A stretch of DNA of 64,000 bases from Patescibacteria group bacterium (lineage in GTDB: Bacteria > Patescibacteriota > Minisyncoccia > Phycocordibacterales > JACOZG01), in NCBI GenBank assembly GCA_038064435.1, contig JBBTTC010000004.1, forward strand, positions 3,615 through 67,614, read 5' to 3'. Under the pieces are notes generated by a model, which was given only the letters and a program-made list of their open reading frames with translations, did no database searches and was not told the DNA's origin. The position numbers were made by a program, and so were the translations under genes. Shown piece by piece: positions 5,538-40,924 of the stretch (the stretch's first letter is position 1; every line of letters begins with the position of its first letter).

Positions 5538-7556
<2,019 letters not shown>

Positions 7557-7561
7557 TTATT

Positions 7562-8098: not shown

Positions 8099-8102
8099 TT
8101 CA

Positions 8103-8711: not shown

Positions 8712-8713
8712 GT

Positions 8714-9948: not shown

Positions 9949-10681
9949 TTAGATTGAAAAAAAAGTTGAGGGCAAAACCGAGCGCCAAGAAAGGCGCAAA
10001 CGGCACCTCCGCCTTAATTGTAGAATATCGTCCCACAGCGAGCAATGCCAAGCCCACACCAGCCCCGCTCCAAAACGACCAAACCATGGCACCTAAGGCG
10101 CCCGGCCAACCAAGAAGAAAGCCGAGGGCGAGGGCGAGTTTGGCGTCGCCCAAACCAAGCCAACGGCCGCGCGAACCCGCCCACAACAGAGCAAAAAATC
10201 CGGCCCAGCCAGCGCCGGTGGCCAAATACCACCAGCGATCGGGTTGAACTAGAGCATAAATTAAGGCTAGAGCGATAAGTAAATACACCGGCCCATCGGG
10301 AATAATTTGGTGCCGCCAATCATAGACTACGATCACAACGATCAAACTCATTACCAACCACCAAAGCAACCACCACCAATTAACTCCGGCCGGGCCGGCC
10401 GGAAATTTGCTGGCCACGGCGGCAAAGAGCGCCGCCGTGGCCAGCTCCACCAGCGGGTACTGCCAAGAAATTTTAGCGCGGCAGTAACGGCAACGGCCGC
10501 CCAAAAACAAAAAACTGAAAAGTGGTACCAGATCATACCAGGCGAGTTGCTGGCCGCAGGCCAAGCACAGCGATCGGCCGGCCACCGTGCGCCCGGTATT
10601 AAGTCGGTAAACAACAACATTCAAAAAACTGCCAACAATCAAGCCAAGGATAAACGTAAATACCAAAGTCAATTCCACCAC
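9932..10681 (-). CDS. pilD: prepilin peptidase (A24 family)
   Basis: N-terminal CxxC...CxxC zinc motif and polytopic membrane domain typical of PilD. Confidence 0.85.
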   Translation of the reverse strand: MVELTLVFTFILGLIVGSFLNVVVYRLNTGRTVAGRSLCLACGQQLAWYDLVPLFSFLFLGGRCRYCRAKISWQYPLVELATAALFAAVASKFPAGPAGVNWWWLLWWLVMSLIVVIVVYDWRHQIIPDGPVYLLIALALIYALVQPDRWWYLATGAGWAGFFALLWAGSRGRWLGLGDAKLALALGFLLGWPGALGAMVWSFWSGAGVGLALLAVGRYSTIKAEVPFAPFLALGFALNFFFNLNVFFF

Positions 10682-10713
10682 CCCCTCATTCTATCGCTTG
10701 CCAGCGCTAATCT

Positions 10714-10740
10714 CACTGTCAAGGACGATCCTTGACAGTG
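10714..10740. repeat. REP-like 27-nt palindrome cactgtcaaggacgatccttgacagtg (copy 1)
   Basis: 12-bp perfect stem with 3-nt loop; identical copy at 11438..11464; overlaps the 3' end of the RAYT ORF. Confidence 0.85.
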
Positions 10741-11405
10741 GAATACTCGATCCAATCGGAAACGAATTCCTGAAACTCATGCGCTTGATTAAAGTAATCT
10801 GGAAAATTTTTGTTGCCCGACAAGATTGAATCCGATGGTCGGGGCCTATCTCTATAGTAGGCGTAACTTGAATATTCATATTTATCAAGAAACTGTTGAG
10901 CAAATCTGGCGTCAATTATTATCTTGCTCTCCCAATTATGCGGATCAACTGTTTTCACGGGATTAAGATGAATATACGCAAAAAGATATTTAAGATACTC
11001 GTTATTATCAATATGGCTAGCTTTAAAAGTACCCTCGAACAAACTACCGCTTCGATTCTGCTTTTTATTGAAGTACATCGAGTATCCAGTTAAAAGCTTT
11101 TTCATAAAAATTGTCACACCATTATCGTCTTTTGCCCTTACCAATAAATGAAAATGATTGGGCATTAAACAGTAGGCCCCAATATCAACCATTTTTTCGC
11201 CGAACGATCTTGACCACAGATGGCTAATTGTCAAGGACGATCCTTGCCAGTCGCTGAGATGCACTGTTTGACGAAAATTTGCCACATGAAGCAAAACAAG
11301 AAAGCGAAGGTAGTCGCCATGGCCTAAAAATATTTGCCGACGATCGGTACCGCGATTGTAGAGATGATAATACTGGTCAGTAGCAAAAGCTGTTTTTCTT
11401 TGCAC
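10719..11405 (-). CDS. REP-associated tyrosine transposase (RAYT, IS200/IS605 TnpA-like Y1 HuH)
   Basis: HuH motif YCLMPNHFHLLV and conserved Tyr region; flanked by REP hairpins. Confidence 0.8.
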   Translation of the reverse strand: MQRKTAFATDQYYHLYNRGTDRRQIFLGHGDYLRFLVLLHVANFRQTVHLSDWQGSSLTISHLWSRSFGEKMVDIGAYCLMPNHFHLLVRAKDDNGVTIFMKKLLTGYSMYFNKKQNRSGSLFEGTFKASHIDNNEYLKYLFAYIHLNPVKTVDPHNWESKIIIDARFAQQFLDKYEYSSYAYYRDRPRPSDSILSGNKNFPDYFNQAHEFQEFVSDWIEYSTVKDRP

Positions 11406-11570: not shown

Positions 11571-12047
11571 TTAGGAACAGGAAGCAGCCGCAGCGCCACC
11601 TCCAATGGCCGCACCGGCTTTGGCTACACCAGCACTATTAACACACCATGATGTCGTATCTGGTAGGGTAGCCGAGACGGCCCAAGATGATGCCGCCGTT
11701 CCACCAGCAGCAGCCGTAAGATCACTGGATACACACTGAGCATCAGCATTAGCGTACGCGCCCTCTACGGCCACAATAGCTTGATTGATGTTGGTGTCAG
11801 CAAACAGAGTACTTGCTGTCGCCGCGCAATCGCCCAAATCGAAATCGGTGCCATAGCTTGTATTGTTGTCATAAAAAATCTCGGCTGAAGTCCTGATGCC
11901 AGCCATGTTTCCCTTAATAGCCCCGATGGTGCCTTTCTGGCGTGCTGTGTTCAAACTAGCCAGCACAATACCCGACAGGATGCCGATGATAGCAATAACG
12001 ACCAGAAGCTCGATGAGGGTAAAACCTCGTTTATAATTCTTACTCAT
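11571..12047 (-). CDS. type IV pilin (major pilin candidate)
   Basis: Class III signal KRGFTLIELLVVIAIIGIL; about 158 aa; C-terminal SWCVNS...C loop; sits between pilC and pilD. Confidence 0.8.
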   Translation of the reverse strand: MSKNYKRGFTLIELLVVIAIIGILSGIVLASLNTARQKGTIGAIKGNMAGIRTSAEIFYDNNTSYGTDFDLGDCAATASTLFADTNINQAIVAVEGAYANADAQCVSSDLTAAAGGTAASSWAVSATLPDTTSWCVNSAGVAKAGAAIGGGAAAASCS

Positions 12048-12153
12048 TATTTTCTTGAAAAACTTACTATTATCTACGACCAAATTGTTAATAAATGACG
12101 GCGTTCATTATAAACCCCCGCCCCAAACTGGCCAAGCGACCTGTGGATAACCA

Positions 12154-17974: not shown

Positions 17975-19078
17975 TTATCTTAATTCAGCCAATTGCCGAA
18001 GGGCCAAGCCAGTGGCCACGGCAAAGCCGGGGCCGGTGGATGCCAGAGCTTTTTCCAAAAAGGCCGGGGCCTGGGTTTTGGCAAAAGGGTTGCCCAACTC
18101 CACCGGCGCAGCAAAACTTTTGGCCGCCATCTCGAGCAAACCCTTAAGTAGGGCGCCACCGCCCAACAAAACTATTTTACTCACGGCTCGTTTTTGCTGT
18201 TCTTGATAAAGCATTAAAACTTTATTGGTTTCAGAAAATATATACTCGACGATAGTGTTGACCGTGCTGGAAATGTCACCGCCCTCCAGATGTTCCACCA
18301 GCCCCACTCGCCGCTTGATCTCCTCAGCCTTAGCAAAATCAACTCCGAGGGCCCGAGCGATGCTAAGGGTAATATCCTGCGCTCCCTTACCAATAGTGTG
18401 CGACAGTCGAACAATGCCATAATCCACTACCGTTACCTTGCTGGTGGAGGCACCGATGTCTAAAATAACGGTGACCGTCATTTCGCCAGAAAAGACCGCT
18501 CGCAGGGCACTGAAGGTCTCGATTTCAAAAAACGCTGGCGTTAATCCCTTGGCCTGACTGATGTCGCGATATTGGCTAATCGTCTCTTGGTGAATGGCGG
18601 CGACTAACACCTGCGTCTTTTTTTCTCCACCTTCACTCCTCACGGCCGGTGGCGGAATCACCCACCAATCTAACTCCACTTCCGAGATCGGCACCGGCAC
18701 ATACTTCCGCGCCTCAATCGGAATCACCTTAGTGAGAGTGGCGGCCGGAATATTGCCCGGCAAGGTAACCATAACCAACAAACTAGAGCGCAAGGGTATG
18801 GCCAAGGCGCAACTAGCGGCCGTGACGCTGGCTTCAGTAAAAAGGTCGGTTAATAGTTGGGCCGTCTTCTCATTATTAAGACGTGCCACCTGACTTACGG
18901 CCAGATCGGCATAGGGACCGATCGCCAGTTCACCATAAGTTTCTAACACGGCCTGACCTTTGTCCTTTTTTAGTTGAACCACCTTGACCGACGACGAGCC
19001 AATATCAATACCCACCACTTGGGTTGATTTTTTTTGCCAAAGACCAAAACTAAAAAACTTTTCTAGCGGCCTCACCAT
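17975..19078 (-). CDS. pilM: type IV pilus assembly protein PilM (actin-like ATPase fold)
   Basis: VGIDIGSSSVKVV phosphate-1 motif, 367 aa. Confidence 0.85.
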   Translation of the reverse strand: MVRPLEKFFSFGLWQKKSTQVVGIDIGSSSVKVVQLKKDKGQAVLETYGELAIGPYADLAVSQVARLNNEKTAQLLTDLFTEASVTAASCALAIPLRSSLLVMVTLPGNIPAATLTKVIPIEARKYVPVPISEVELDWWVIPPPAVRSEGGEKKTQVLVAAIHQETISQYRDISQAKGLTPAFFEIETFSALRAVFSGEMTVTVILDIGASTSKVTVVDYGIVRLSHTIGKGAQDITLSIARALGVDFAKAEEIKRRVGLVEHLEGGDISSTVNTIVEYIFSETNKVLMLYQEQQKRAVSKIVLLGGGALLKGLLEMAAKSFAAPVELGNPFAKTQAPAFLEKALASTGPGFAVATGLALRQLAELR

Positions 19079-19125: not shown

Positions 19126-19788
19126 ATGTGGTTGAGCATGTTTATCCACAGTTTACTAAATTTAATTTTACCGGCTCGATGTTTTGGTTGTGGTTCTGGT
19201 GGTGACTATCTCTGCACGGCCTGTTTGCAAGCCGCACCAACGGCCGAGATTGACGACACTGGCGTTGAAGCACTGTTTGATTATCGACATCCACCTATCC
19301 AGCGCGCCATTTGGGCCTTAAAATACCGCCACGCTAGTTCGATTGCCGATATTTTTGCCGGCGCGCTTGGGGCACGATTACTGGATGAAGTGGCCGACGA
19401 GCGTTGGGTCCGGCCGGGTCGCGGCACGCCGGTGATCATTACCGGCGTGCCGCTCTGGCCAGCGCGTGAGCGCTGGCGCGGCTTTAATCAAGCCGCCGCC
19501 CTAGCCAAAAGTGTAGCCAAAAAATCACCGTTTCCGCTCGAATTCCGCTCTGACATTCTGATTAAAATTAAAAATACTCCGCCGCAGGTTTCGCTCAACA
19601 GCCGAGCGACCCGACAAAAAAATGTCCGCGGCGCTTTTGCCGCTGGGCGGCCGGCGGCGGTTGCCGGCCGCGATATCATCGTCCTCGACGACGTCACCAC
19701 CACCGGCGCCACCCTCACTGAGGCGGGCCGAGCGCTCGGCGCGGTCGGCGTTGGTTCCGTCTTCACCATCGCCGTAGCTCGCGGGTAA
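19126..19788 (+). CDS. comFC: ComF family competence protein (phosphoribosyltransferase domain)
   Basis: N-terminal Cys4 zinc finger plus PRTase motif IIVLDDVTTTGATL. Confidence 0.85.
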   Translation: MWLSMFIHSLLNLILPARCFGCGSGGDYLCTACLQAAPTAEIDDTGVEALFDYRHPPIQRAIWALKYRHASSIADIFAGALGARLLDEVADERWVRPGRGTPVIITGVPLWPARERWRGFNQAAALAKSVAKKSPFPLEFRSDILIKIKNTPPQVSLNSRATRQKNVRGAFAAGRPAAVAGRDIIVLDDVTTTGATLTEAGRALGAVGVGSVFTIAVARG

Positions 19789-19832
19789 AAAATGTGTTAG
19801 GTTGATGATCGTTACAGAGATAATTGAGCAAT

Positions 19833-19919
19833 GGAGAGTTGGCTGAGTGGTCGAAAGCGCCTCACTGCTAACGAGGTAGGGGGTTACTCCCCTCGTGGGT
19901 TCGAATCCCACACTCTCCG
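19833..19919 (+). tRNA. tRNA-Ser (anticodon GCT)
   Basis: GGAGAGT acceptor, long variable arm, anticodon loop CTGCTAA, T-arm GGGTTCGAATCCC. Confidence 0.85.
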
Positions 19920-19925
19920 AACGCA

Positions 19926-19941
19926 GTCCGCGGCGGCGGAC
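19926..19941. repeat. GC-rich hairpin gtccgcggcggcggac (variant of the recurring 16-nt palindrome)
   Basis: Seven nt past the tRNA-Ser 3' end; related copies at 36110, 36491 and 39377. Confidence 0.7.
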
Positions 19942-20111
19942 AAGTGAGGAGAGTGAGCGAGCCAACTGCTTGGCTCGCGTTGGGATTCGAACGGCGGAGT
20001 GCTCGATTTTTATCAAAAAATCGGCACGAGCCGGTGCCCAGACCGATCCGCCTTGGGCGGAGAGAGTCGCGGGCGAATCCTACGCATTTCGCGTCAATTA
20101 AAATACACGCC

Positions 20112-20732
20112 ATGGCAAATCAAATAACACACATAGTTTTGGCAGAGAGAATATCGGATCAACTTTTTAAAAAATTTACTCGACATACATTTCTTGTGGG
20201 GACGGTTTTTCCTGATATTCGATACCTAAAAGTAATCGAGCGCGATAAAACTCATTTTAAAGGATTAACTTTGGAGGATATTTTGAACGAAACCAGTCCT
20301 TTCGTTGCTGGTATGAAATATCACAGTTTGGTCGACGAAGTTCGGGAAAAATACGTGATCGAAAAGAACATTTACCAATTTTTTCCTGCCTCGAAATTTA
20401 TCAAGCACGCCCTTAAAACCTACGAGGATGAGATCTTATACAATAAAGTTTCTGACTGGAGCGAAATCGTAAAATATTTTGACATCATTGCCGACGGAGA
20501 AATAAAACTTGTCGAGCAGTCTGACAAGCTTAAATTGTGGCATTCGGTAATTCAAGAATATTTTAAGGAATCGCCAACCGACAATTCTCGCCGGGGCTTT
20601 GTTCTTGGGATTGGATTTTCTGATGAAATTGCGAGTGAAATAAATGGACTGATTGATAAAATGCGACAAATTCCGGAGGTTCGTGAAATCATCTTAGATT
20701 TATATAATAATTGGGATTCACTCGTACAATGA
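20112..20732 (+). CDS. hypothetical protein (AT-rich island)
   Basis: 207-aa ORF in a low-GC region downstream of tRNA-Ser. Confidence 0.5.
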   Translation: MANQITHIVLAERISDQLFKKFTRHTFLVGTVFPDIRYLKVIERDKTHFKGLTLEDILNETSPFVAGMKYHSLVDEVREKYVIEKNIYQFFPASKFIKHALKTYEDEILYNKVSDWSEIVKYFDIIADGEIKLVEQSDKLKLWHSVIQEYFKESPTDNSRRGFVLGIGFSDEIASEINGLIDKMRQIPEVREIILDLYNNWDSLVQ

Positions 20733-20757
20733 CCAAATCAAATATATACTGCTTGAT

Positions 20758-20994
20758 ATGAATATAGTGACCGGAAAATATCGCCACTACAAGGGCAAGG
20801 AATATGAAGTGGTTGGCGTGGCTAAACACAGCGAAACTCTGGAAGAGCTCGTGGTCTACCGAGCTTTGTATGGCAATCACGATCTGTGGGTCAGGCCGAC
20901 TAAGATGTTTCTGGAATCAGTCGAGGTTGATGGAAAATTGATTCTGCGCTTCCAGTTTGTGGAAAATCGATCTTTCCTCGGCGCACACCAATAA
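20758..20994 (+). CDS. DUF1653-like small protein
   Basis: YRHYKGKEYEVVGVAKHSETLEELVVYRALY...WVRP resembles DUF1653. Confidence 0.55.
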   Translation: MNIVTGKYRHYKGKEYEVVGVAKHSETLEELVVYRALYGNHDLWVRPTKMFLESVEVDGKLILRFQFVENRSFLGAHQ

Positions 20995-21001
20995 AAAAAC
21001 C

Positions 21002-21196
21002 ATGAAAACTCTAAAATGCGACCGATGCGAGCACGAAGAGACGGCAGAAACATTTGAAGAATGGATGAATAAACTCAAGCCGCACTACTTCAAAGACCAT
21101 GCTGATGTGATGAAAGACTCAAGCAAAACCAAAGAAGACATGGAAAAATGGATGACCGAAAACAAGGCGAGATTTGATTCTGTCCCAACATCTTGA
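21002..21196 (+). CDS. hypothetical small protein
   Basis: 64-aa ORF with CxxC pair (CDRCEH), AT-rich. Confidence 0.35.
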   Translation: MKTLKCDRCEHEETAETFEEWMNKLKPHYFKDHADVMKDSSKTKEDMEKWMTENKARFDSVPTS

Positions 21197-21247
21197 ATTT
21201 TCGGACTGGAAACGGTGCTGGCGCGCCTTCACTAAACGACATTTAAC

Positions 21248-21931
21248 ATGACCCAAATTATCTTTAAATACGATCTCGGCAAGGACACAGAAAACTTCAT
21301 CCGTGGAACTCGGGCGAAGAATAGCTCCAAACCAACTAGGCTTCAGGAAGTATACGTCGCTCAAAACGGCACCGATTATGACGAAGTAAAAGTTAAGGAA
21401 TTTTTAGAATCATACGCAAACGAGATTTCTCTCGATCCGAATAAAGCGGTGAAAGAGCTTGAGGAAAGCTGGAAGAAGATAGAAAAAACATTTCTGCAAC
21501 GAATTGAAACCATGTTCAAAATCACTTACCCGACCTCACAAATTACCGCCTACCTCACCACCAACCAGCGTTGCACCTATAACATTCCCGAAAATTATTT
21601 CTTCGTAAATTTCACTGCCAAATCTTCTAACCACATTATCATGCATGAACTATTCCATTTTTATACCTGGTACACACTTCATGATGATCTGGTGGCAGCG
21701 GGAATAGACGAAAATCAATATAACAACATTAAAGAATCGCTTACGATTCTGCTCAACACCGAATTTCTAGAATTGATGAACGGCGCACACGATGAGGGCT
21801 ACCCTCAACACGTCGAGATGCGCGAGAAAGTACAAGAATTATGGAGCAGTTCAAAAAACATCCGGGAAGTTGCTTCCGGTGTGTTTTCCCTCCCCAACCC
21901 CAGCAACTCAAGTTCTTATTCCTCATCGTAG
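21248..21931 (+). CDS. hypothetical protein with HExxH motif (possible zinc-metallopeptidase-like)
   Basis: IIMHELFHFYTW; no other recognised similarity. Confidence 0.4.
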   Translation: MTQIIFKYDLGKDTENFIRGTRAKNSSKPTRLQEVYVAQNGTDYDEVKVKEFLESYANEISLDPNKAVKELEESWKKIEKTFLQRIETMFKITYPTSQITAYLTTNQRCTYNIPENYFFVNFTAKSSNHIIMHELFHFYTWYTLHDDLVAAGIDENQYNNIKESLTILLNTEFLELMNGAHDEGYPQHVEMREKVQELWSSSKNIREVASGVFSLPNPSNSSSYSSS

Positions 21932-22054
21932 GCGTGCTTGAGACCGCCGGCGGAAAAATTACTCTCACGCCCGCCCATCAGACCCCCAAAAACACATACT
22001 CCTACGAAGACCTAAGATTGGTGAAGTTGTTCTTGTCATTGTAAGATAAGACAG

Positions 22055-22714
22055 ATGGATCAAACGATCAACCCACAACCACCACCCAAATCAAAAGTTG
22101 GCTGGAGGTGGCTAGCGCCGGCATTGCTGGTCTTAATTTTTATGTATTTTCTCGTACTCGAAAACTTAGGGTTTTTTGCGAGAAGAGACTACACGACATG
22201 GTTGGATTTTATTACTTGGACACTGGTGATAACTTGGTTTGCCTCCATCGTGGTTTCAATTATTTTGGGCATTATTACTCCTAATAAAAAATATAAATCT
22301 ATATCCTTATTGTTGGCAGTAACAGCGCTGGTTTTGACCTACTATTTGTCTCTGCCGCAAAGTCATCCGAAAAGACCCTCTGGCGCCGGGACAAGAGCAG
22401 CTATGGCTACGGTCCGTTTCGAATCCGAACTTTTTTACGACAATGTTGGCAATAATACTTACGGCCAAGTAACTGCAAATTGCGAGCAACCCAATTCACT
22501 TTTCGATTACGAGCCCATTAGGCAGGCAATCAATGCGGCCGAACAATATTCGAAGAACGAGGCAGTATGCCTATCGACGCCGGAAGCTTATGCCGCCTCA
22601 ATTAAACTGCCAGACAAAAACACATTTTGGTGCATCGACAGTACCGGTTTTGCCGGCGAAACTTTAAGAAACATCACCCGGCCCATCTGTGGGGAAAAAG
22701 TGTCAAATCAGTAA
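22055..22714 (+). CDS. membrane protein with pilin-like C-terminal Cys-loop motif
   Basis: Three N-terminal TM helices; C-terminus FWCIDSTG...C shared with the pilin. Confidence 0.5.
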   Translation: MDQTINPQPPPKSKVGWRWLAPALLVLIFMYFLVLENLGFFARRDYTTWLDFITWTLVITWFASIVVSIILGIITPNKKYKSISLLLAVTALVLTYYLSLPQSHPKRPSGAGTRAAMATVRFESELFYDNVGNNTYGQVTANCEQPNSLFDYEPIRQAINAAEQYSKNEAVCLSTPEAYAASIKLPDKNTFWCIDSTGFAGETLRNITRPICGEKVSNQ

Positions 22715-22721
22715 CCGGTGA

Positions 22722-23381
22722 TCAGACTAAATCTTTTTTCTTGCTCTCAAATTCATCTTTATTAATTTCGCCTTTGGCGTAACGGCTTTTAAGAACTTCA
22801 AGAGCGGAACCGCCCGGCACCTGCCCATGACCCGCTAGCCATTTAACGAGCGAAACAACACCAAAGATCACCAATACCCACCATAAAATCATCAATAGCC
22901 AACCGAGACCACCGGCGCGTGCATGAGCAAAATATCCGGGCCCACCACCGCCCCAGGTCTGCATCATCGGCATCCAACCACCAAAATTGCCCATACCGCC
23001 CAAAGCTGAAGCCGACGGATCACAACCCGACAAACGTTTGCCGAGCGCGATGTGAATCTGCTCCTCTCCCTCCTCACCATGAGCTTGGACCATCATGGCA
23101 TTCATGGCGGCATGCGACTCGCCCATCATCTGCCCCATGTAATATTCGCCCAGCACGCCAAACTGTTCGTCGCCCAAACTCGTGCAGGTAATTTCTTTGG
23201 CCTGCAATTTAGACCACAGTTCCAAGCCTTCTTGTTCCTCACGGGCGGTATGCTCCACAATTTCATCCCAATCAACTGCGACACCCGCGCGGCCGCCACC
23301 CATCATCATCTGCGCTTCAGCGTCATTGATAAAAAACAAAACACTGCCAGCAAACATCATCCCAAAAATAATTTTTTTCAT
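22722..23381 (-). CDS. exported Met/His-rich protein with C-terminal SHOCT domain (candidate copper-binding)
   Basis: Signal peptide; Met-rich stretches MMMGGG, MGQMMGESHAAMNAMMVQAHG, WMPMMQTWGGGG; C-terminal TM plus SHOCT-like LKSRYAKGEINKDEFESKKKDL. Confidence 0.5.
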   Translation of the reverse strand: MKKIIFGMMFAGSVLFFINDAEAQMMMGGGRAGVAVDWDEIVEHTAREEQEGLELWSKLQAKEITCTSLGDEQFGVLGEYYMGQMMGESHAAMNAMMVQAHGEEGEEQIHIALGKRLSGCDPSASALGGMGNFGGWMPMMQTWGGGGPGYFAHARAGGLGWLLMILWWVLVIFGVVSLVKWLAGHGQVPGGSALEVLKSRYAKGEINKDEFESKKKDLV

Positions 23382-23397
23382 GTTTACAATTAAATCG

Positions 23398-23781
23398 CTA
23401 TTTAAACCAATCTCTGGGTGTGCGCGGCCAGCCGCGCACCAAAAGTAGGGCCAGCGGCGCGCCCCAATTAGCCCAACGTTCGACGAAATCCCAAATTGGA
23501 TCAGGCCCGAATGGCCAGCGAACCATTGCAGTCCATAGTCCCCACACCATCATCCAGAGGAGAGCTACACGAACCGGCCTAATGAGAACTAAGAGAGCTA
23601 ACGTTACGTCGATAATGCCAATAAAAAAAAGAATCGTGGTGATTGTATCGGCATTGATAATACCGAATGGATAGAAATACTTAAACCACCCCTCCTTGCC
23701 CTGAAGCGCAAACATACCGTGGCCAATGAACTCGCCAGCCACCGCGATACGCAAAACCCATTCGACAAGTTTTACATTCAT
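23398..23781 (-). CDS. small polytopic membrane protein (DoxX-like)
   Basis: 127 aa with about 4 TM helices. Confidence 0.4.
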   Translation of the reverse strand: MNVKLVEWVLRIAVAGEFIGHGMFALQGKEGWFKYFYPFGIINADTITTILFFIGIIDVTLALLVLIRPVRVALLWMMVWGLWTAMVRWPFGPDPIWDFVERWANWGAPLALLLVRGWPRTPRDWFK

Positions 23782-23839
23782 TAATTATTTTTATTACTAA
23801 ACTATTAATAAACACCGCTCATTTTAATTTTACCACCTT

Positions 23840-25900
23840 TTACAATTCTCGTCTCTTTAATAAAATAGCATTAACCGAAACGATAATCGTGCTGACTGAC
23901 ATCAACACCGCGGCCAAGGCCGGTTCCAGCACAATACCGCGAAAAGCCAAAGCGCCAGCGGCCAGCGGCAGGGCAAAGATGTTGTAGCCAGCCGCCCACC
24001 ACAGATTTTGAATCATTTTGGAATAAGTGAGCTGAGACAATCTAATAATTTTCACAATATCGCGTGGATCATTCCGCACCAAAATGATTCCGGCCGACTC
24101 GATCGCCACATTGGTGCCAGCGCCGATGGCAACACCGAGATCGGCGGCGGCGAGGGCCGGCGCGTCATTAATGCCATCACCCACCATGGCCACCTTCAAG
24201 CCACGACCCTGCAGAGCCTTAACCTTAGCTGATTTTTGCTCTGGCAAAACGCGGGCAAAGTATTCCTCAATACCCAATTCGGCGGCAACCTGTTTGGCCA
24301 CATCTTCAGAATCACCGGTGATCATCGCTGTTTTCACACCCAAACCATGAAGCTGCTCGATGGCTGCCTTGGCCTCCGGACGAATAGTATCGGCCACGCT
24401 GATGGTCCCGATCTTCTGCCCGCCAACTTCCACCACAATATCGGCACCGCCCCGATGACCAACAAAAACGTTTTGGCCATCAACCACCGCTTCGGCGCCA
24501 ATACCGGGAATACGCTTAAAGTTTTGCGCCGACTTAACAATTAACTTTCGATGCTTGGCCTCGGCGACAATGGCTTGAGCAATGGGATGTTCCGAGTGTT
24601 CGTCCACGGCCGCGGCTAGGGCTAAAGATTCGTCCGAGCTAACTCCAGTAACGGCAAATTTACCGGCCGTTAGAGTGCCAGTTTTATCAAACAACACCAT
24701 ATTGACCGTCCGGGCCGCCTCGAGCGCCAAGCGCTGCTTGACCAAAAAACCGTTCCGCGCCGCCTTGGTGGTGGAAATTGATGCCACCAGCGGCACGGCA
24801 AGGCCGAGTGCGTGCGGACAAGCCACCACCAACACCGCCACCAAACGCGCCACGGCAAAACCTACTTCCGCGCCAGCCAACAGCCACGAAACCAAGGTGA
24901 TCACTCCGCCCCCCACCGCCACCACGGTTAAGTAGAGCGCCGCGCGATCCGACAAAATTTGTAAGCGTGATTTAGAAGCCTGCGCCTCGGCCACCAACCG
25001 CATCACTCCAGCCAAAAAAGTTTTCTCACCAATACTATCCACCCGGACTTGCAACGAGCCGTCGCCATTGATCGTACCGGCAATCACCCTATTGCCAGAT
25101 TTCTTAACCACCGGCTTGGATTCACCGGTCACCATTGACTCATTAATGTCCGAGTCACCGCTAATGATCGCGCCGTCGGCGGGAATTTTAGCCCCCGGAC
25201 GCACCACCACCGTATCGCCGGCCAACAATTCCGACAAAGCGATCATTACGGTTTTTTCTCCACGGACGACCTCGGCCGTATCGGGCAATAGTTTCGATAA
25301 TTCTTTTAGCGCGCCCTGCGCGCCAGAAACGGCCCGCATCTCCAACCAGTGACCAAGAAGCATGATCGTGATCAGAGTGGTCAACTCCCAGAACAGCGCC
25401 TCCGCACCGGCAAAAACTGCATAGACGCTCCAGAAGTAGGCGGCGGAGATGGCGATGGCTATTAGGGTCATCATGCCGGGCAGTCGTCCCTTAATTTCCC
25501 GCCACGCTCCAGCCATAAAAACCCAACCGCCATAAAAGAAAACCAGAGAACCCAAAATTAACGGCAAATAATCAGTGCCCGGGAAAGCCGGTGGTGACCA
25601 GAGTCCGCCAGAGGCGGATCCGCCTATGGCGGAAAAAATCATTTGAGTAACATCGGCATACAGCACCACCGGTATCGTCAAAACTAAACTAACCCAGAAT
25701 TTACGCATAAACATGGCGGTGCTGTGACCTGCGTGTTTACTCGTACTGTGCTTAATCGGCACCAAACTCATTCCACATTCCGGGCACATGCCCGGCCGAG
25801 ACTGTTGCACCTCCGGATGCATGGGGCAAGTGTAAACTGTCCCCGCTCTATCTTGGTGCGATTCGTTTTTAATTGGTGTGTGATGACAACAATTGTGCAT
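23840..25900 (-). CDS. heavy-metal (copper) translocating P-type ATPase, CopB-like
   Basis: His/Cys-rich N-terminus, YTCPMHPEV...CPECGM zinc-ribbon metal-binding domain, CPH transduction motif, DKTGTLT phosphorylation site, GDGINDAP hinge. Confidence 0.9.
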   Translation of the reverse strand: MHNCCHHTPIKNESHQDRAGTVYTCPMHPEVQQSRPGMCPECGMSLVPIKHSTSKHAGHSTAMFMRKFWVSLVLTIPVVLYADVTQMIFSAIGGSASGGLWSPPAFPGTDYLPLILGSLVFFYGGWVFMAGAWREIKGRLPGMMTLIAIAISAAYFWSVYAVFAGAEALFWELTTLITIMLLGHWLEMRAVSGAQGALKELSKLLPDTAEVVRGEKTVMIALSELLAGDTVVVRPGAKIPADGAIISGDSDINESMVTGESKPVVKKSGNRVIAGTINGDGSLQVRVDSIGEKTFLAGVMRLVAEAQASKSRLQILSDRAALYLTVVAVGGGVITLVSWLLAGAEVGFAVARLVAVLVVACPHALGLAVPLVASISTTKAARNGFLVKQRLALEAARTVNMVLFDKTGTLTAGKFAVTGVSSDESLALAAAVDEHSEHPIAQAIVAEAKHRKLIVKSAQNFKRIPGIGAEAVVDGQNVFVGHRGGADIVVEVGGQKIGTISVADTIRPEAKAAIEQLHGLGVKTAMITGDSEDVAKQVAAELGIEEYFARVLPEQKSAKVKALQGRGLKVAMVGDGINDAPALAAADLGVAIGAGTNVAIESAGIILVRNDPRDIVKIIRLSQLTYSKMIQNLWWAAGYNIFALPLAAGALAFRGIVLEPALAAVLMSVSTIIVSVNAILLKRREL

Positions 25901-25906
25901 AAGGTT

Positions 25907-26332
25907 TTATTTGAGTTCCCACTTAAATAAACGTTCGGAAACAGCACCAACGTTTTTGATTTTTAATTCCAGATAGTTGGAAGAGTAATCGAGAGATTGG
26001 AATACCAGTACACCCGCCCGATGATGCCCGCCGACTGCTCCCTCCCATCTTATGGGCCGATGCTCCGCGCCTCGGTCATCAGTCAAAGTAGTTACACTGA
26101 CCATATCCTGATCTAGTTCGATCGAATGTGTATCCATCACTACGTTGAACATCCATTCCCGAGAACCGGACGACAACTTTATGGGCGTCACGGCCACAGT
26201 AACACCGGCCCGCTGATCGCTTTTTGTTTCCCATTTTTGCTGTACTTGTTCTGGCAAACGCTCCTCATAAAAAACCAATATCGCCACAAGGAAAGCGGCG
26301 ACCAAGATGATTATGGTCGTTGATTTTTTCAT
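25907..26332 (-). CDS. hypothetical exported protein
   Basis: 141 aa with N-terminal TM/signal; coupled to the ATPase gene. Confidence 0.4.
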   Translation of the reverse strand: MKKSTTIIILVAAFLVAILVFYEERLPEQVQQKWETKSDQRAGVTVAVTPIKLSSGSREWMFNVVMDTHSIELDQDMVSVTTLTDDRGAEHRPIRWEGAVGGHHRAGVLVFQSLDYSSNYLELKIKNVGAVSERLFKWELK

Positions 26333-26772
26333 AGATGCTTTTTGAACTTGATGATTTTATGACCGATAAATACGATCCCCAAAATATTGAAGGCTAAACC
26401 AACCCAAAAGATCTGTAACTGATATTGAGCGACGAAGGAAAGAGCACCGGCCAAACCAAGCAAAGGCACGATATTGGTCAAGTAATGGGCGCAACACGAA
26501 ATCATCGAGAGCGTCGAAGTTGTACCGGTCACGCCCAAAATCTTAGCCGCGCCGGGCCGTCCGACGATCAGACCCCGAAGATAAACATACAAGCCAACCT
26601 GAACACCAAAACCAAAAGCCAAACTGGTGATAAAATACCAGAAATCAGCAAACTGCCCCCAAGTAAAATTCCAACCAGAAACCAAGGTCAACACCGCAAA
26701 ATACAGCCCGAGCAACAGCAAGCTGGCCGATAAACCGTATACTAGTGATTTTTTTACCTCAAACATCCTCAT
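26329..26772 (-). CDS. hypothetical membrane protein
   Basis: 147 aa, 4 TM helices, CCAHY motif. Confidence 0.4.
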   Translation of the reverse strand: MRMFEVKKSLVYGLSASLLLLGLYFAVLTLVSGWNFTWGQFADFWYFITSLAFGFGVQVGLYVYLRGLIVGRPGAAKILGVTGTTSTLSMISCCAHYLTNIVPLLGLAGALSFVAQYQLQIFWVGLAFNILGIVFIGHKIIKFKKHL

Positions 26773-26781
26773 AGTTTTATT

Positions 26782-27558
26782 TTATACCCCACAACTAACT
26801 TGCTCTTGCCGTTCGGATGAAGCCAATGAAGCGGCGATTTTGGCGTAACCCGAAGCGCTGGAATACTGGGCGTCCAAAACTTCACGCGGTTTGACGGCAT
26901 CCCATTCGACACCCTGATTTTTGAAGTAAACAGCAATGGTCCGATAATGATCCGGAAACCAGTAAGTATTAGCGATGAGCGCCATCTGCCACATCTCTTC
27001 TTCGCTCGCACCCTGCGCGGCCATTAATTCTAGCAAGCCCAACATCGCCATACCATGATTGCAGTCAGGGAAATGCGCCGAGTTATTACAGCATGGCCGA
27101 TAAATCCCCCGCGCTAGGCGATCAACGATCGCCTGTTGCTCGGGTGTTAGGGTGACAAATTGATGCTGACTGTAGTGATCCATGGTCGGACCACGAGCCA
27201 AGGTCCAACCGCCGGTCGAGGCAAAATTGCCGGCGCCACCGTAGCGCGCGTCCATCATTTCGCCCGATTCCAATATTGGATTTTTATTCGCCAAACCGAG
27301 CGCCCAAAACAAATTAAGCCACTGGTGAGAATTGGCCGCCGTAATTTCTAGCGGCGCTAATTTTTGATCAGTTAGCCAAGCATCGTATCCGGCTGGCAAT
27401 TTTTCAACGTCAATTACTCCGGACGCCACCAACCGGGCACCCAAGTCACCCCAATGCAACTTCACACTCTCAACCTCTTTTGTCGGTTGTGATTTTGGCA
27501 AACCAATCAGAACAATTAACAGAACTAAAATTGCAATCGTTAAACTATTTTTCATCAC
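26782..27558 (-). CDS. hypothetical exported Cys-rich protein
   Basis: Signal peptide; RPCCNNSAHFPDCNHGM cluster; 258 aa. Confidence 0.45.
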   Translation of the reverse strand: MMKNSLTIAILVLLIVLIGLPKSQPTKEVESVKLHWGDLGARLVASGVIDVEKLPAGYDAWLTDQKLAPLEITAANSHQWLNLFWALGLANKNPILESGEMMDARYGGAGNFASTGGWTLARGPTMDHYSQHQFVTLTPEQQAIVDRLARGIYRPCCNNSAHFPDCNHGMAMLGLLELMAAQGASEEEMWQMALIANTYWFPDHYRTIAVYFKNQGVEWDAVKPREVLDAQYSSASGYAKIAASLASSERQEQVSCGV

Positions 27559-27720
27559 AGCAATGAGCTAATTTTTTTACAATGTCGCCAATCGACCACG
27601 GCTTTCCGTTACCGATCTCATTTAGTATCTGGCGGCGCTTTTCGCATTTCGAACAATGCGGAAGGTGGAGAATTTTTGTAATCTTAGCGATCATGTCGCC
27701 CAACTTGAATTGTTTTTTCA
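27548..27720 (-). CDS. possible small Cys-containing protein (below ORF-track length cutoff)
   Basis: By-eye translation gives MKKQFKLGDMIAKITKILHLPHCSKCEKRRQILNEIGNGKPWSIGDIVKKLAHCCDEK with an upstream RBS; not in the ORF track. Confidence 0.25.
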
Positions 27721-28500
27721 TAACAGAAAAATTAATACCCCAAGAATCACCATGGCTACTCCGCCCCAGAGTCTAAGATTTTTTGTTTCGGATTTTTTCC
27801 AACTCTGCACCTTAGCGATCAGCTCGCGGTTGCTAGCGATGAGTAGAATAATTACCAATGGCAGGACAAAAATTAGATTGTAGAGAAGTAAATAACCAAC
27901 ACCAGTTAGATACGTGCTGTAATCGTGGAGCAAACCGAGCACCATTAAGTAGGGTCCGCCGGTACACGGGAACTCGCACAAGCCTACCAAAGCCCCCAGC
28001 AAAAAAGCCGCCGGCAAGGTAGCACGAGACATCAGGCCGGCCATTTTTTTGTGAGCCACGGACGGGATCCGTAGCTTGACCGGAAAAGACGGGAAGAATT
28101 CATTCACCAGATTAAGGCCGCCGAGCGCCAACAAAAGCGCCGCCCCCACCTTGGCCATAAAATGCGGAGTATTGAAGAGATGCAGAGCTTGGAATAAACC
28201 GAGGCCGATTAACAGATAAACCAGCAATAAGCCCAAAATATAGACGCTACCAATCTTAAGAATACCGGCCCGCGACTTGCCCAAAGATAGCAAAAAGCCG
28301 ACGGTTAAAATCAGAAGGCCAAAGGCGCAGGGATTGATGCTGTCGATCAAGGCCGCCACCGCCACCAAGGGCAAAAGCCATTTCCCGCCCGCGCTTAAGT
28401 TCCACAACGCGGTTGTGCCGATATTACCGGCGCGAAAGAAAATCACTCCGCCAAAGATGATGAGAGCTAGGGCGATTAGAATCGCCAATTTTTTACTCAT
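27718..28500 (-). CDS. ccdA: cytochrome c biogenesis / thiol-disulfide transporter CcdA (DsbD transmembrane family)
   Basis: Conserved Cys in TM1 (INPCAF) and TM4 (FPCTGGPYL). Confidence 0.8.
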   Translation of the reverse strand: MSKKLAILIALALIIFGGVIFFRAGNIGTTALWNLSAGGKWLLPLVAVAALIDSINPCAFGLLILTVGFLLSLGKSRAGILKIGSVYILGLLLVYLLIGLGLFQALHLFNTPHFMAKVGAALLLALGGLNLVNEFFPSFPVKLRIPSVAHKKMAGLMSRATLPAAFLLGALVGLCEFPCTGGPYLMVLGLLHDYSTYLTGVGYLLLYNLIFVLPLVIILLIASNRELIAKVQSWKKSETKNLRLWGGVAMVILGVLIFLL

Positions 28501-28994
28501 TAGGGTGTGACTAGAGCCGAAAAGCCGAGCTCGACTGGCCGGCCGGTGCTATTTTCAATCGTCACCACGCGCTGGATCCGGCCCACGCCGGCCGGCCCGT
28601 GGGCGGCCGGATCAAACACCACTTCAATCAATGCTTCATCGCCGGGCGCCAAATTTTCGTCGATCTTGGGAATGGCGCCATGACCGGGCATACCGTAGGG
28701 GCCAATTTTTTTACCGTCAACAGTAAGTTCGGCCGTGGTGCACATGCAAGAGGTATACATTTTATTAATGGTCACCACAGTCGGGCTGGTATTTTTAATG
28801 CTAAAAACATGCTTAACCATACCAGCGGCCATGGAAATGGTGCCAAAATTGTAATCGGGGTTTTCTTCAACCACCAGAGCCGCGCCACCACTGGCCGCGG
28901 CCGGAACAGTTTTTTGATCAGTGGGACGGGCCAACCAAATCAATCCAGACAAACCGAGAATAACAACGACAATGTAAATAGTTATTTTGTTCAT
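28500..28994 (-). CDS. DUF1573-like exported protein
   Basis: Signal anchor then beta-rich domain with CMC motif. Confidence 0.45.
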   Translation of the reverse strand: MNKITIYIVVVILGLSGLIWLARPTDQKTVPAAASGGAALVVEENPDYNFGTISMAAGMVKHVFSIKNTSPTVVTINKMYTSCMCTTAELTVDGKKIGPYGMPGHGAIPKIDENLAPGDEALIEVVFDPAAHGPAGVGRIQRVVTIENSTGRPVELGFSALVTP

Positions 28995-29093
28995 AGTGAT
29001 TAATGATTAACAAAACAAAAATCCCTCAACCGAGGGATAAGCAGGCTGACGGAGCAAAACGCCATTCGACAAAACGACCCTCACTCCGTCGCC

Positions 29094-29534
29094 CTAAAAA
29101 ACGGTTGGACTAGTTTCGTGCAAAGCCAACCAGCGATTGATTTTGACTCGAGCTGGCGCAACCTCAAGCCCAAATCGTGCCCAAATTCTCGGGGGCGATT
29201 CAGAAAAGACCGTCCAACCAATAATCACCAAAAGAGTGACGAGCAGCAACAGGGCTCCCAAACTAACAGTCCAAAAACTTGAGGCTGGCCCCTTGGCCGC
29301 GCCAAGATGAAAATTAAGAGCAGTTAAAAAACCGCCACTGGCTGGACAATCAGCTAAACTAATTAACTCGGCCAAACAATCATGATTATTCTGGCCAGCC
29401 GCATGACCCATTAATAATGGACTAAAAACCATCAAACCGGCCAAAACAACGATTAACAATATCGCCACACCGTAAGTTAAAAAACTCAGCCGCAACATGA
29501 CGTTCATTTTAACAAAATGTGTGGTAGACTTCAA
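29094..29534 (-). CDS. hypothetical membrane protein
   Basis: 146 aa, two TM helices, Cys pair CLAELISLADC. Confidence 0.35.
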   Translation of the reverse strand: MKSTTHFVKMNVMLRLSFLTYGVAILLIVVLAGLMVFSPLLMGHAAGQNNHDCLAELISLADCPASGGFLTALNFHLGAAKGPASSFWTVSLGALLLLVTLLVIIGWTVFSESPPRIWARFGLEVAPARVKINRWLALHETSPTVF

Positions 29535-29536
29535 GC

Positions 29537-30112
29537 ATGATTAGCTTTTTAAAGAGAAACATATTATTGATGGTCGCCTTTGGTTTGCCAGTGGTATTTA
29601 TTGCGGGAGTAGTTTTGAGTATTTATCTGCCCGGTGTGTCAACGGCTTATGATTTCGTCTACGCGAGCTGTAACAAAAGCTATGGTTATTACGATGATGT
29701 TTGTAGCCGGTATCTAAACAACGCTCATGTTGTAGAAAATGGCAAGCTGGTAAATAAGCCGATTGATCCGACCCAAGACATAAACCGAAACAAAATTCCC
29801 GATGCCAACGAGTTCACGGCGCGCTTTTTCCGTCACGATACAGCTAAAAACGAGAGTCGAGAAATTACTCTGGGCGAGACGCAAATGTTAAATTTCAATC
29901 AGCTTTTGACTTCGCCCGACGGCGTGACGATCAGTAGCCACTCCAGCTATAATTCTGGCTTCTTCCCACTGTTTGACGGACGATCCAGTTATGGCCGATC
30001 ACTAGTCAAGGGCCGCCGCAGTACACGCCTCAATTTAATTAACGGCGTCGATCGCTATTATGATCCGTCCGACTTTCACTTTGTCGGCTGGGTTTTACCA
30101 GGTAGAAACTAA
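29537..30112 (+). CDS. hypothetical membrane-anchored protein
   Basis: 191 aa with N-terminal TM. Confidence 0.4.
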   Translation: MISFLKRNILLMVAFGLPVVFIAGVVLSIYLPGVSTAYDFVYASCNKSYGYYDDVCSRYLNNAHVVENGKLVNKPIDPTQDINRNKIPDANEFTARFFRHDTAKNESREITLGETQMLNFNQLLTSPDGVTISSHSSYNSGFFPLFDGRSSYGRSLVKGRRSTRLNLINGVDRYYDPSDFHFVGWVLPGRN

Positions 30113-30118
30113 AAAATT

Positions 30119-31096
30119 ATGAACAAAGATGAATTATTGCGTGAATTGGCGTTAAAAATTAGCACGGGCGAGATAAATCGCGAGGAGGTTACCCGCAGTC
30201 TCGGCGGGTCCGCCGCGGCGGATCTAGGCGAGCCAGCAACTCCGGCTCCACACATCGGCTTAACCAAGTGGTTTTATTGGTTGGGCGGCATTATCGCCAT
30301 CGTGGGTATTATTCTTTTTGTTGGTCAGTTTTGGGACGATTTAGGTTCAGCGGCGCGCATCATCGTCACTCTCGGTTTTGGTTTAATCTTGGCTGCCACT
30401 GGCTCGATGCTACTAAAACAAAAACCAAACCAAATGATCGGCTCAATCTTCCACACCTTGGGCGGTTTACTGATTCCGGGTGGAACCATGGTGCTGTTGT
30501 ACGAGCTAGATGTAGACTTATCAACTCTCTGGCCAATTACCATTAGTTTTGGCTTGATATTCGTTTTTTACTTGGCATTAGCGGCCGCGCATAAACGTCC
30601 GATTCTAACTTTCTTTGCCGTCGCCAACGGCACAACTTTCGTCTATCTGCTGATAGAATCACTGATCGAGGGCCGCGCCTACGAGCACGAAAATCTTTAT
30701 GCCTATCTCACCATGATCGTGGGTATAACCTACCTCCTGCTGGCCCAACAATTCAGCCGCGGTTGGAATAAGCAACTGGCCGGGCTATTTAATTTCTTCG
30801 GCAGTGCTGGTTTTTTGGCCGCGGCCGGCTCGCGCATCCCTGACTCGGTACCGTGGCAACTAATTTATGTTCTGTTCGTCTTGGCCATGTTGTTTTGGTC
30901 CATTCGAGCTAAGAGTCGAGGAATTTTGGCTGTTAGCACCATCGCCCTACTGGCGTACATTGGTTTTATTACCCAAGAATACTTCGTTGATTCCATCGGG
31001 TGGCCAATCGCTTTGATAATCCTTGGTTTTGTCTTTATTGGTCTTGGCTACGCTTCAATCAATATCAGCAAAAAATACATTCAGGCCGCCAATTGA
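30119..31096 (+). CDS. polytopic membrane protein (DUF2157-like)
   Basis: 325 aa, soluble N-terminal segment then about 8 TM helices. Confidence 0.45.
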   Translation: MNKDELLRELALKISTGEINREEVTRSLGGSAAADLGEPATPAPHIGLTKWFYWLGGIIAIVGIILFVGQFWDDLGSAARIIVTLGFGLILAATGSMLLKQKPNQMIGSIFHTLGGLLIPGGTMVLLYELDVDLSTLWPITISFGLIFVFYLALAAAHKRPILTFFAVANGTTFVYLLIESLIEGRAYEHENLYAYLTMIVGITYLLLAQQFSRGWNKQLAGLFNFFGSAGFLAAAGSRIPDSVPWQLIYVLFVLAMLFWSIRAKSRGILAVSTIALLAYIGFITQEYFVDSIGWPIALIILGFVFIGLGYASINISKKYIQAAN

Positions 31097-31134
31097 TAGC
31101 TCGCTGGTCTCATTGTCGCTTTTACAGATAAGCT

Positions 31135-31644
31135 GTGGTAGCATTGGAAAATATGGAAAATTCAAGAAATGTGGTTATAGGACTTGTGATCTTGCTAGTT
31201 TTAGTAGTTGCTGGCGCCATTTGGCTAGGCCGCGGTGATGAAGCCAACCGGCAAACCGGAGCGGCCAACCAACCCGGCGCTAACGGCCAAGGTGCTAGTG
31301 GTGGTGACGCAACGGTGACTGTCAACGATCAGTTTCCCGGCCAGATTGTTTACTTATCTAACTTGTCCCTACCAACTGGCGGTTGGGTAGTTATTCATGA
31401 AGATGGTGGTGGCGCGCCGGGCGCCGTCGTTGGTCAAAAGTATTTTTCCGCCAGTGATCGCGTAGGTGTGATTAATTTAAATCAAACTACAATTAATGGC
31501 CGCCGCTATTGGGCCATGGTTCATACCGATAACGGTGATGGCATCTTTGATCCGACGGTTGATCTACCGGCGCAAAATGCGGTTGGAGAAAATGTAATGG
31601 TCGGTTTTAACGTCACAACGACTTTGCCGGAAAATAAGGGCTAA
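31135..31644 (+). CDS. hypothetical exported protein
   Basis: Signal anchor, Gly/Asn/Gln-rich linker, beta-rich domain. Confidence 0.4.
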   Translation: MVALENMENSRNVVIGLVILLVLVVAGAIWLGRGDEANRQTGAANQPGANGQGASGGDATVTVNDQFPGQIVYLSNLSLPTGGWVVIHEDGGGAPGAVVGQKYFSASDRVGVINLNQTTINGRRYWAMVHTDNGDGIFDPTVDLPAQNAVGENVMVGFNVTTTLPENKG

Positions 31645-36461: not shown

Positions 36462-36490
36462 TCCTACAAAAAGACCAGTTCGATGGTAGA

Positions 36491-39322: not shown

Positions 39323-39338
39323 CTCATTAAAACATTAG

Positions 39339-39742: not shown

Positions 39743-39759
39743 TAAAAAACAAGACAGAA

Positions 39760-40922: not shown

Positions 40923-40924
40923 AA

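Follow-up and report, generated by a model that had tools for sequence, protein, structure and literature searches.

The DNA analysed here, a stretch of 64,000 nucleotides (the window), matches a metagenome-assembled contig of a groundwater member of the Patescibacteria (candidate phyla radiation, CPR) sampled at Hainich (Hain_H41, NCBI locus tags AAB468_011xx). Its gene string recurs in several assemblies of the Hainich groundwater population. Our subject is a low-GC stretch at positions 20100-22050, next to the gene for tRNA-Ser(GCT), that carries four small genes encoding proteins of 206, 78, 64 and 227 amino acids (Table 1). The explanation that we favour, with moderate confidence, is that an insertion hot spot at tRNA-Ser(GCT) here holds an old accessory patch, integrase-less and in part ameliorated, made up of unrelated small genes and owing its dip in GC content mainly to amino acid composition. 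The low-GC stretch would be the tRNA-proximal end of a lineage-specific segment of approximately 11.7 kb that may have accumulated at an insertion or recombination hot spot 3' of tRNA-Ser(GCT), between a block formed by pilM, comF and the tRNA gene and a block formed by a Kelch-repeat gene and recG. Such a patch would be old and mosaic, probably the product of more than one event, and its boundaries would have eroded; three of its four genes would by now have become host-like at synonymous sites, leaving the 206-aa gene alone as still atypical at third codon positions.

Gene order around tRNA-Ser(GCT)

The window was compared with 37 related loci recovered in a scan with PilM, with one genome per species. 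The genomes carry the labels Vogelbacteria, Paceibacterota, 'Saccharibacteria' or Patescibacteria, and in all but four of the loci PilM is 47-62% identical to that of the window. The order pilO-pilN-pilM, then divergent comF, then tRNA-Ser(GCT) is kept across the relatives: pilM is always followed by pilN and pilO, comF adjoins pilM in 34 of the 37 loci, and tRNA-Ser(GCT) lies no more than about 1 kb from comF in approximately 20 of them. Past the tRNA gene, a RecG homologue is found within 0-7 kb in 15 loci, at less than 1 kb in four (L019, L030, L031 and L036) and at 2-7 kb in the eleven others; the corresponding distance in the window is 12.8 kb. A Kelch gene abuts tRNA-Ser in locus L021, and in the window these two genes are separated by approximately 11.7 kb (positions 19921-31612, about 20 genes). 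A first-pass annotation, made from the sequence of the window, had confined a proposed genomic island to 2 kb, about one-sixth of the length of this variable segment.

The four genes were not found in conserved synteny in all relatives. They are missing from the tRNA-Ser site in 36 of the 37, and the sole carrier of any of them, L015, has a copy of the 227-aa gene (66% identity) one gene away from the tRNA. Among the other genes of the segment, the only ones present at the site in a relative are the SHOCT gene, which is directly beside tRNA-Ser in L016, and the P-type ATPase gene, in L028 and L042. What fills the slot differs in every relative and includes housekeeping-looking genes. Judged from gene order, these comparisons support a variable slot on the 3' side of tRNA-Ser(GCT) across this clade. 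Contigs of Logan assemblies break at the tRNA; strain variation was considered as the reason and rejected, since the tRNA sequence is common to several species and assembly graphs can break there on that account alone.

Composition of the low-GC stretch

The GC content of positions 20100-22050 is 41.3%, against a mean of 49.8% for the window; it is the minimum among all 1950-nt windows, approximately 3.2 standard deviations under the mean, and the drop noted in the first-pass annotation is real. The stretch begins about 190 nt past tRNA-Ser(GCT), with a step at approximately 20100 from a GC content of 0.59 in the spacer (19921-20111) to 0.37 in the first gene. Recovery had been placed at the next gene, for a membrane protein said to have a pilin motif. 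GC content is partly back there (0.442 over 22055-22714), but full recovery comes only from about 22700. The protein itself, of 219 aa, is a pilin paralogue, its residues 73-196 matching the N_methyl pilin of the window (11571-12083) with 30% identity (BLASTP, E = 3e-11), but it has an extended N-terminus and is without a canonical prepilin motif. Its gene was not at the tRNA-Ser site in the relatives compared.

As a mark of foreign origin, the low GC content loses much of its weight when the signal is separated by codon position. GC content at third codon positions (GC3) is 0.362, 0.544, 0.477 and 0.496 in the 206-, 78-, 64- and 227-aa genes, respectively, against a mean of 0.527 (standard deviation 0.06) for the genes of the window. 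The corresponding z-scores are -2.7, +0.3, -0.8 and -0.5, and the 206-aa gene is the only one of the four in which synonymous-site composition is atypical. At second positions (GC2) the values are 0.266, 0.278, 0.338 and 0.325, with a mean of 0.416 (standard deviation 0.056) and z-scores of -2.7, -2.5, -1.4 and -1.6, and the GC deficit of the stretch sits mainly at codon positions 1 and 2. All four proteins are low in Gly, Ala, Arg and Pro (GARP; z-scores from -1.6 to -3.0) and have raised proportions of Phe, Tyr, Met, Ile, Asn and Lys (FYMINK). Homologues of the 227-aa and 206-aa genes have low GC2 in eight of eight other genomes, and their GC3 mostly tracks that of the host. The GC dip is mostly an amino-acid-composition trait of the protein families. 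Given the codon-position split and the low GC2 of the homologues, the dip is weak evidence for a recent foreign origin. A sharp GC dip beside a tRNA gene can be mainly an amino acid effect, and both GC3 and synteny are needed before an island is called.

Traces of insertion at the tRNA 3' end

Second copies of the tRNA 3' end were searched for in every related locus. Exact direct repeats of 17-20 nt occur 86-147 nt downstream in L013, L026, L031 and L046, and in L031 two repeat-bracketed units follow tRNA-Ser(GCT) in tandem. In L008 and L009 a 17-nt tRNA-end repeat, CCCACCGTCTCCGCCAA, is found 8451 nt downstream, in the gap between two peptidase genes. The 8.45-kb interval delimited in this way in L008 has a GC content of 0.43, against 0.55 and 0.49 in its flanks, and is without an integrase; it contains a homologue of the 227-aa gene that is 76% identical, the closest one with a resolved context, which overlaps the gene for a LigT-like 2H phosphoesterase by 4 nt. 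The L008/L009 interval shows, in a relative, what classically marks a tRNA-integrated island. The tRNA-end repeats of the relatives mean that insertions do occur at tRNA-Ser(GCT), and they document its 3' flank as a recurrent insertion site in the Patescibacteria metagenome-assembled genomes that we compared. To our knowledge, the mobile-element biology of the Patescibacteria is poorly known. The cargo of the interval (L008 1351-9907; L009 is alike) consists of genes for a DKNYY protein, a 618-aa protein of unknown function, a Memo/PGA_cap fusion, the LigT-like 2H phosphoesterase, the HExxH homologue and an S66 LD-carboxypeptidase.

The spacer that separates tRNA-Ser from the 206-aa gene is highly structured (minimum free energy -88.6 kcal/mol, z = -4.55 against shuffled sequences). 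It carries an inverted copy of the tRNA T-arm at 19981-19992 and a decayed 10-nt trace of the tRNA 3' end, CGAATCCTAC, at 20074-20083. The spacer aligns (z = 5.3; one of 300 shuffles equalled the score) to the module that an 18-nt tRNA-end repeat closes in L026, with CGAATCCTAC at the spacer end falling where the L026 repeat starts, and it aligns also to the repeat-bracketed module of L013 (z = 4.5). The spacer is probably the remnant of a small earlier insertion, or of a module of the kind that tRNA-end repeats bracket in the relatives, and the low-GC genes start just beyond it. The repeat-bracketed short modules of L013, L026, L031 and L046, decayed in the window, could be excision footprints, miniature integrative elements or structured RNA. 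The region after tRNA-Ser had been described as tRNA-like, but the similarity of the spacer to the tRNA falls short of significance (alignment score 24, against a shuffle maximum of 25). Rfam, applied to the spacer and to the whole stretch, returned tRNA alone, and the spacer matches no family. Scans of promoters and terminators gave counts near those of shuffled sequence. A terminator-like hairpin with a T-run is present on the minus strand of the spacer at 20023-20038, where no minus-strand gene ends today; it would fit a convergent gene that once lay there, comparable to the one found against the tRNA in L021 and other relatives.

The four proteins

The four open reading frames, among them those for the DUF1653 protein, the 64-aa CxxC protein and the 227-aa protein with the motif IIMHELFHFY, are real, with the correction that the first encodes 206 amino acids and not 207. 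Their content had been described as uncharacterised; none of the four is an orphan, each having a place in a family conserved in Patescibacteria or in bacteria. Remote-homology searches gave a weak PF00882-like match for the 206-aa protein, and the gluzincin-like matches of the 227-aa protein all fell short of significance.

The family of the 227-aa protein comprises 209 word-indexed homologues; a full scan with a hidden Markov model yields 722 clusters at 50% identity, most of them of approximately 200-235 aa, fragments aside. Residues H133, E134, H137 and E163 are invariant in 50 sequences, as are D182, G184, Y185, H188 and R192, so that an HExxH motif is followed by an invariant Glu 26 residues past the second His. 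The predicted model has a predicted local distance difference test (pLDDT) score of 94.5. In a Foldseek search with this model the top 50 PDB matches were nearly all catalytic domains of M1 or M61 gluzincins (best E = 0.33, template modelling score 0.32), and nothing significant was found in a viral structure library. Pfam has no family for the protein or its remote members, and a PDB sequence search with the family profile found nothing; sub-threshold Pfam matches were to SprT-like proteins in 14 of 50 members and to DUF5700 in four of 50, which makes these zincins candidates for a looser kinship. The motif and the model lead us to predict a metallohydrolase of the gluzincin type, minimal and stand-alone, in a family for which Pfam has no entry; instead of a protease, it could prove to be an amidase or some other hydrolase. 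Like the gluzincins, with their thermolysin-like fold (M1 and M61), it has HExxH and a downstream Glu and, in the model, a mixed beta-sheet followed by a helical subdomain. Unlike them, it forms a stand-alone unit of approximately 215 aa, has an N-terminal helical region of its own and carries additional invariant residues, the five from D182 to R192 named above. About a dozen homologues are fused to a C-terminal GrpB domain; GrpB/UPF0157 is known solely as a CoaE-associated domain (PMC2765170).

We inspected approximately nine genomic contexts for this family. In L136, L015 and L008/9 a close homologue follows tRNA-Ser(GCT) on the strand of the tRNA gene, and homologues at least 66% identical are associated with tRNA-Ser(GCT) in four lineages. 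The L136 copy is 43 nt downstream of the tRNA gene and beside pilM, that of L008/9 is beside LigT-like and peptidase S66 genes, and that of L137 is 250 nt downstream of tRNA-Trp. Elsewhere, members of the family are found between tuf and fusA (L010), beside an acetyltransferase gene and away from tRNA-Ser (L011, from the same genome as L018), after a GIY-YIG gene and after a DUF5652 gene. Identity within the family runs counter to relatedness: the L136 gene is 70% identical while its PilM and PilB are 45% and 57% identical, and the L018 genome, with a PilM that is 60% identical, has a 227-aa copy that is only 59% identical and is located elsewhere. This pattern of sequence identities suggests transfer into tRNA flanks. 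As separate observations, the L010 homologue (P0013, 56% identity; locus 6634-10860) is on the opposite strand, has a GC content of 0.375 against 0.487 for the locus, and breaks the conserved str/S10 ribosomal region, and it is on the contig of P0005 that a GIY-YIG gene precedes the HExxH-gene homologue.

The 206-aa protein has 116 homologues, and the source-named ones come from Patescibacteria groups. It matches PF00882 (Zn-dependent phospholipase C) with E = 4.5e-4 and 20.6 bits, the cut-off being 26.8, over profile positions 1-52 of 167, and 33 of 45 homologues give a weak match to the same profile (best E = 1.7e-5). D35, H48, H71 and D75 are invariant in the family, and H7, E105, D106 and H144 are nearly so; the model is all-alpha, with a pLDDT of 97. 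A Foldseek search of the PDB with the model gave noise only, with no phospholipase C or P1 nuclease match, and a PDB sequence search with the family profile found nothing. We infer a divergent cytosolic member of the Zn-phospholipase-C/P1-nuclease metallohydrolase superfamily, a prediction under which it would resemble PF00882 proteins in its modelled all-alpha structure, its series of His and Asp residues from the extreme N-terminus and the consistency of its weak matches, although it differs from them in scoring below threshold, in aligning to only the N-terminal third of the profile and in having no signal peptide. Since it has no signal peptide, it would be cytosolic and not a secreted toxin or nuclease. 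In the three contexts inspected, its homologues follow a methyltransferase gene 1.2-1.5 kb downstream of tRNA-Ser(TGA) (L050 and L052) or abut tRNA-Trp (L051).

Assignment of the 78-aa protein to DUF1653 is secure at the sequence level (PF07866, 106.1 bits against a cut-off of 23.5, E = 1.1e-30, 61 of 62 profile positions); it also has a weak match to phrog_4767, of unknown function. The 64-aa protein has 288 homologues, mostly of 61 aa and 67-92% identical among the matches listed. The mean column identity of the family is 78%, C6, C9, H28 and H33 are invariant, and all named sources are Patescibacteria. It is a putative metal binder, judging from these residues, and resembles small metal-binding proteins of the DUF1059 type in size, in its N-terminal Cys pair with downstream His residues and in the label 'predicted small metal-binding protein' that the Joint Genome Institute (JGI) gives to some homologues. 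Unlike that type, it is without a DUF1059 match, or any other match, in Pfam, and it is unusually conserved, with Patescibacteria-named homologues.

No pair of the four families occurs together at any other locus inspected, and the neighbours of their homologues are highly diverse. A defence function had been raised for the genes, and none of the four matches a PADLOC system or has an informative match in PHROGs; NCBIfam gave nothing useful for them, and viral-contig scans with the 227-aa and 206-aa families found no relatives. The neighbouring 219-aa membrane protein has a marginal PADLOC match to CARF_TM (E = 0.0075). The literature on DUF1653, on Patescibacteria islands and on GrpB held nothing informative. 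The four genes probably encode small cytosolic proteins, independent of one another and in three cases likely to bind metal, and not a coordinated system.

Competing explanations

Several observations weigh against an old accessory patch at an insertion hot spot. Exact k-mers of at least 11 nt, blastn-short and fuzzy matching with 4 mismatches in 20 all failed to detect the tRNA 3' end a second time in the window, and no boundary is visible there, so that an insertion origin is arrived at indirectly. The comparators are distant (PilM no more than 62% identical) and synteny decays fast in Patescibacteria, so the variability of the slot may in part be ordinary rearrangement; because they differ at the level of genus or family, presence and absence is lineage-level evidence and recent flux stays beyond its reach. 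Many slot genes in the relatives look like housekeeping genes, and inherited synteny, in place of repeated targeting, could account for the association of the 227-aa gene with tRNA-Ser. The number of contexts inspected for the 227-aa and 206-aa families is small, all sequences compared are metagenome assemblies, and a metagenome scan with ComF found no closer relative, its homologues being no more than 38% identical and having none of the four genes nearby. The claim of an island at tRNA-Ser stands in part: the variable slot, the absence of the genes from 36 of 37 relatives and the tRNA-end repeats in relatives agree with it, but the window has no repeat, integrase or boundary. No other repeats bracket the segment in the window, and no integrase or recombinase domain is present among the genes from 19.9 to 32.7 kb, as the first-pass annotation had noted of integrases. 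A simpler history, which we judge unlikely, is that these are native genes for AT-rich proteins, inherited vertically, and that the relatives differ by genome shuffling in the ordinary course of synteny decay. Host-like GC3 in three of the four genes, low GC2 as a family trait, the wide distribution of the four families with source-named homologues from Patescibacteria groups, the lack of an att repeat, integrase or bounding repeats in the window, and the housekeeping-looking genes in the slots of relatives would all be expected of native genes, and the linkage of tRNA-Ser and the 227-aa gene in four lineages could be retained ancestral synteny. However, synteny is sharp up to the tRNA and resumes at the Kelch and recG genes, with slots of 0-12.8 kb between them; the tRNA-end direct repeats in five relatives represent real insertion activity, and the L008/9 homologue sits inside a repeat-bounded, low-GC island. 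The identity of the 227-aa gene also runs opposite to genome relatedness (L136 and L018), and the 206-aa gene has a GC3 z-score of -2.7.

Recent arrival of a low-GC island from an AT-rich donor at tRNA-Ser, now a remnant or mobilised in trans, appears quite improbable to us. It would fit a position directly 3' of the tRNA with a sharp GC step at approximately 20100, genes that are missing from the site in relatives, the low GC3 of the 206-aa gene and the repeat-bounded, integrase-less, low-GC island with a 227-aa homologue in L008/9. It is at odds with the normal GC3 of three of the four genes, with the lack of an integrase, of bounding repeats and of a second tRNA 3'-end copy in the window even with 4 mismatches in 20, and with a dip that covers one end of a larger variable segment and gives way to host-like GC content in the rest of it; the genes are not found together elsewhere, and so are not the cargo of one element. 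A functional operon, in the form of a metal-dependent module for defence, stress or the processing of tRNA or RNA that is read through from the tRNA promoter, is very improbable. Such a module would account for gaps of 25, 7 and 51 nt between the genes on the strand of the tRNA, for a spacer with no convincing promoter and for metal-ligand motifs in three of the four proteins, and 227-aa homologues do recur beside tRNA genes, one of them overlapping a LigT-like gene by 4 nt and one lying between tuf and fusA; yet no two of the four families are adjacent in any other locus inspected, PADLOC gives no matches and the neighbours of the homologues are highly diverse. In five lineages a close homologue of the 227-aa gene follows shortly after tRNA-Ser(GCT) or tRNA-Trp, in one case inside a repeat-bounded island, and on these grounds a bolder proposal can be framed, which we regard as speculative and rather improbable: the HExxH...E family of approximately 215 aa would be a new zincin family and the cargo of small integrase-less elements that target tRNA 3' ends in Patescibacteria, with the structured 86-170-nt tRNA-end-repeat modules (in four relatives; decayed in the window) as their minimal footprints or vehicles.

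Other features of the window and its relatives

The features of the locus are collected in Table 1. The four genes are on the same strand as tRNA-Ser and are separated from one another by 25, 7 and 51 nt. The remainder of the lineage-specific segment holds genes for a SHOCT protein, a DoxX-like protein, a P-type ATPase with a heavy-metal-binding domain (HMBD), and DUF1573, DUF2157 and DUF7282 proteins, together with several genes without a Pfam match. Within it, at 22722-25900 on the minus strand, the P-type ATPase with its N-terminal HMBD, the DoxX-like membrane protein and the SHOCT protein form a cluster of heavy-metal type.

Table 1. Positions of tRNA-Ser(GCT), the four genes and their surroundings in the window
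Feature	Position	Strand	Remarks
pilM	17975..19078	-	PF11104 PilM_2; last gene of the type IV pilus block; left synteny anchor
ComF-like phosphoribosyltransferase	19126..19788	+	PF00156 and double zinc ribbon; divergent from pilM; left anchor
tRNA-Ser(GCT)	19832-19920	+	ARAGORN; Rfam tRNA 58.1 bits
Structured spacer, GC 0.59	19921..20111	+	191 nt between tRNA-Ser and the 206-aa gene
206-aa PF00882-like protein	20112..20732	+	
78-aa DUF1653 protein	20758..20994	+	
64-aa CxxC...H...H protein	21002..21196	+	
227-aa HExxH...E protein, motif IIMHELFHFY	21248..21931	+	
219-aa membrane protein, pilin paralogue	22055..22714	+	GC 0.442
Rest of lineage-specific segment	22722..31644		Host-like GC; genes with and without Pfam matches
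Kelch-repeat gene	31613-32719	-	Right synteny anchor
recG helicase	32704-34908	+	RecG_wedge, DEAD, Helicase_C; right synteny anchor

A second low-GC patch (40-42%) is found at 39503-41401, directly downstream of the tmRNA gene (38948-39323); tmRNA genes are another classic integration site. It holds genes for a DUF167/YggU protein, a 229-aa unknown, a 139-aa unknown and a SocA/Panacea protein (PF13274, E = 2e-25), none of which was found in the related loci. The last two, the SocA/Panacea protein having an antitoxin domain, are probably a toxin-antitoxin module. On the minus strand at 10719-11405 the window encodes a 228-aa protein with an IS200-like Y1 transposase domain (PF01797, E = 9e-10; GC content 0.393, GC3 z-score -2.3). 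In 10 related loci this gene is conserved in the corresponding place behind the pilus genes, and its product is a candidate for a domesticated transposase or a REP-associated one (RAYT-like). A GIY-YIG gene of approximately 80 codons (36157-36399) overlaps the start of tRNA-Ile(TAT) (36389-36464), and small GIY-YIG genes adjoin tRNA-Ser(GCT) in L038 (8643-8879) and L047 (5252-5512). ARAGORN calls a serine tRNA with anticodon ACT, in the opposite orientation and approximately 200 nt or less from tRNA-Ser(GCT), in L033 (7726-7813) and L040 (3336-3425). An A34 serine tRNA is unusual, and these calls may represent a pseudogene, a mis-call or a real oddity.

Comparison with known systems

Our findings leave current understanding without major change. 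As main leads they offer a zincin-like family that awaits curation and, in relatives, the small modules with bracketing repeats that follow the tRNA. Two well-modelled, widespread and uncurated families are flagged for curation and biochemistry, the minimal HExxH...E zincin and the all-alpha protein resembling Zn-phospholipase C, along with the 61-aa CxxC/His protein, whose conservation is extreme.

Compared with a classical tRNA-integrated island, the patch has the adjacency to a tRNA gene and the differences in presence and absence, but is without an attR or an integrase. Prochlorococcus genomic islands are reportedly flanked by tRNA genes and partial tRNA repeats, and the locus differs from islands of that type in that no tRNA-end repeat survives in the window, its boundaries are undefined and its synonymous composition is largely host-like; moreover, the comparison here is with other genera and families and not with strains, which puts recent flux beyond what it shows. 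It resembles Prochlorococcus-type islands and islets without an integrase in the position of the patch 3' of a tRNA gene, in its variable content, in the partial tRNA repeats of relatives and in its small accessory genes. In these respects the patch is a fresh example of the familiar flexible regions that flank tRNA genes and carry partial tRNA repeats.

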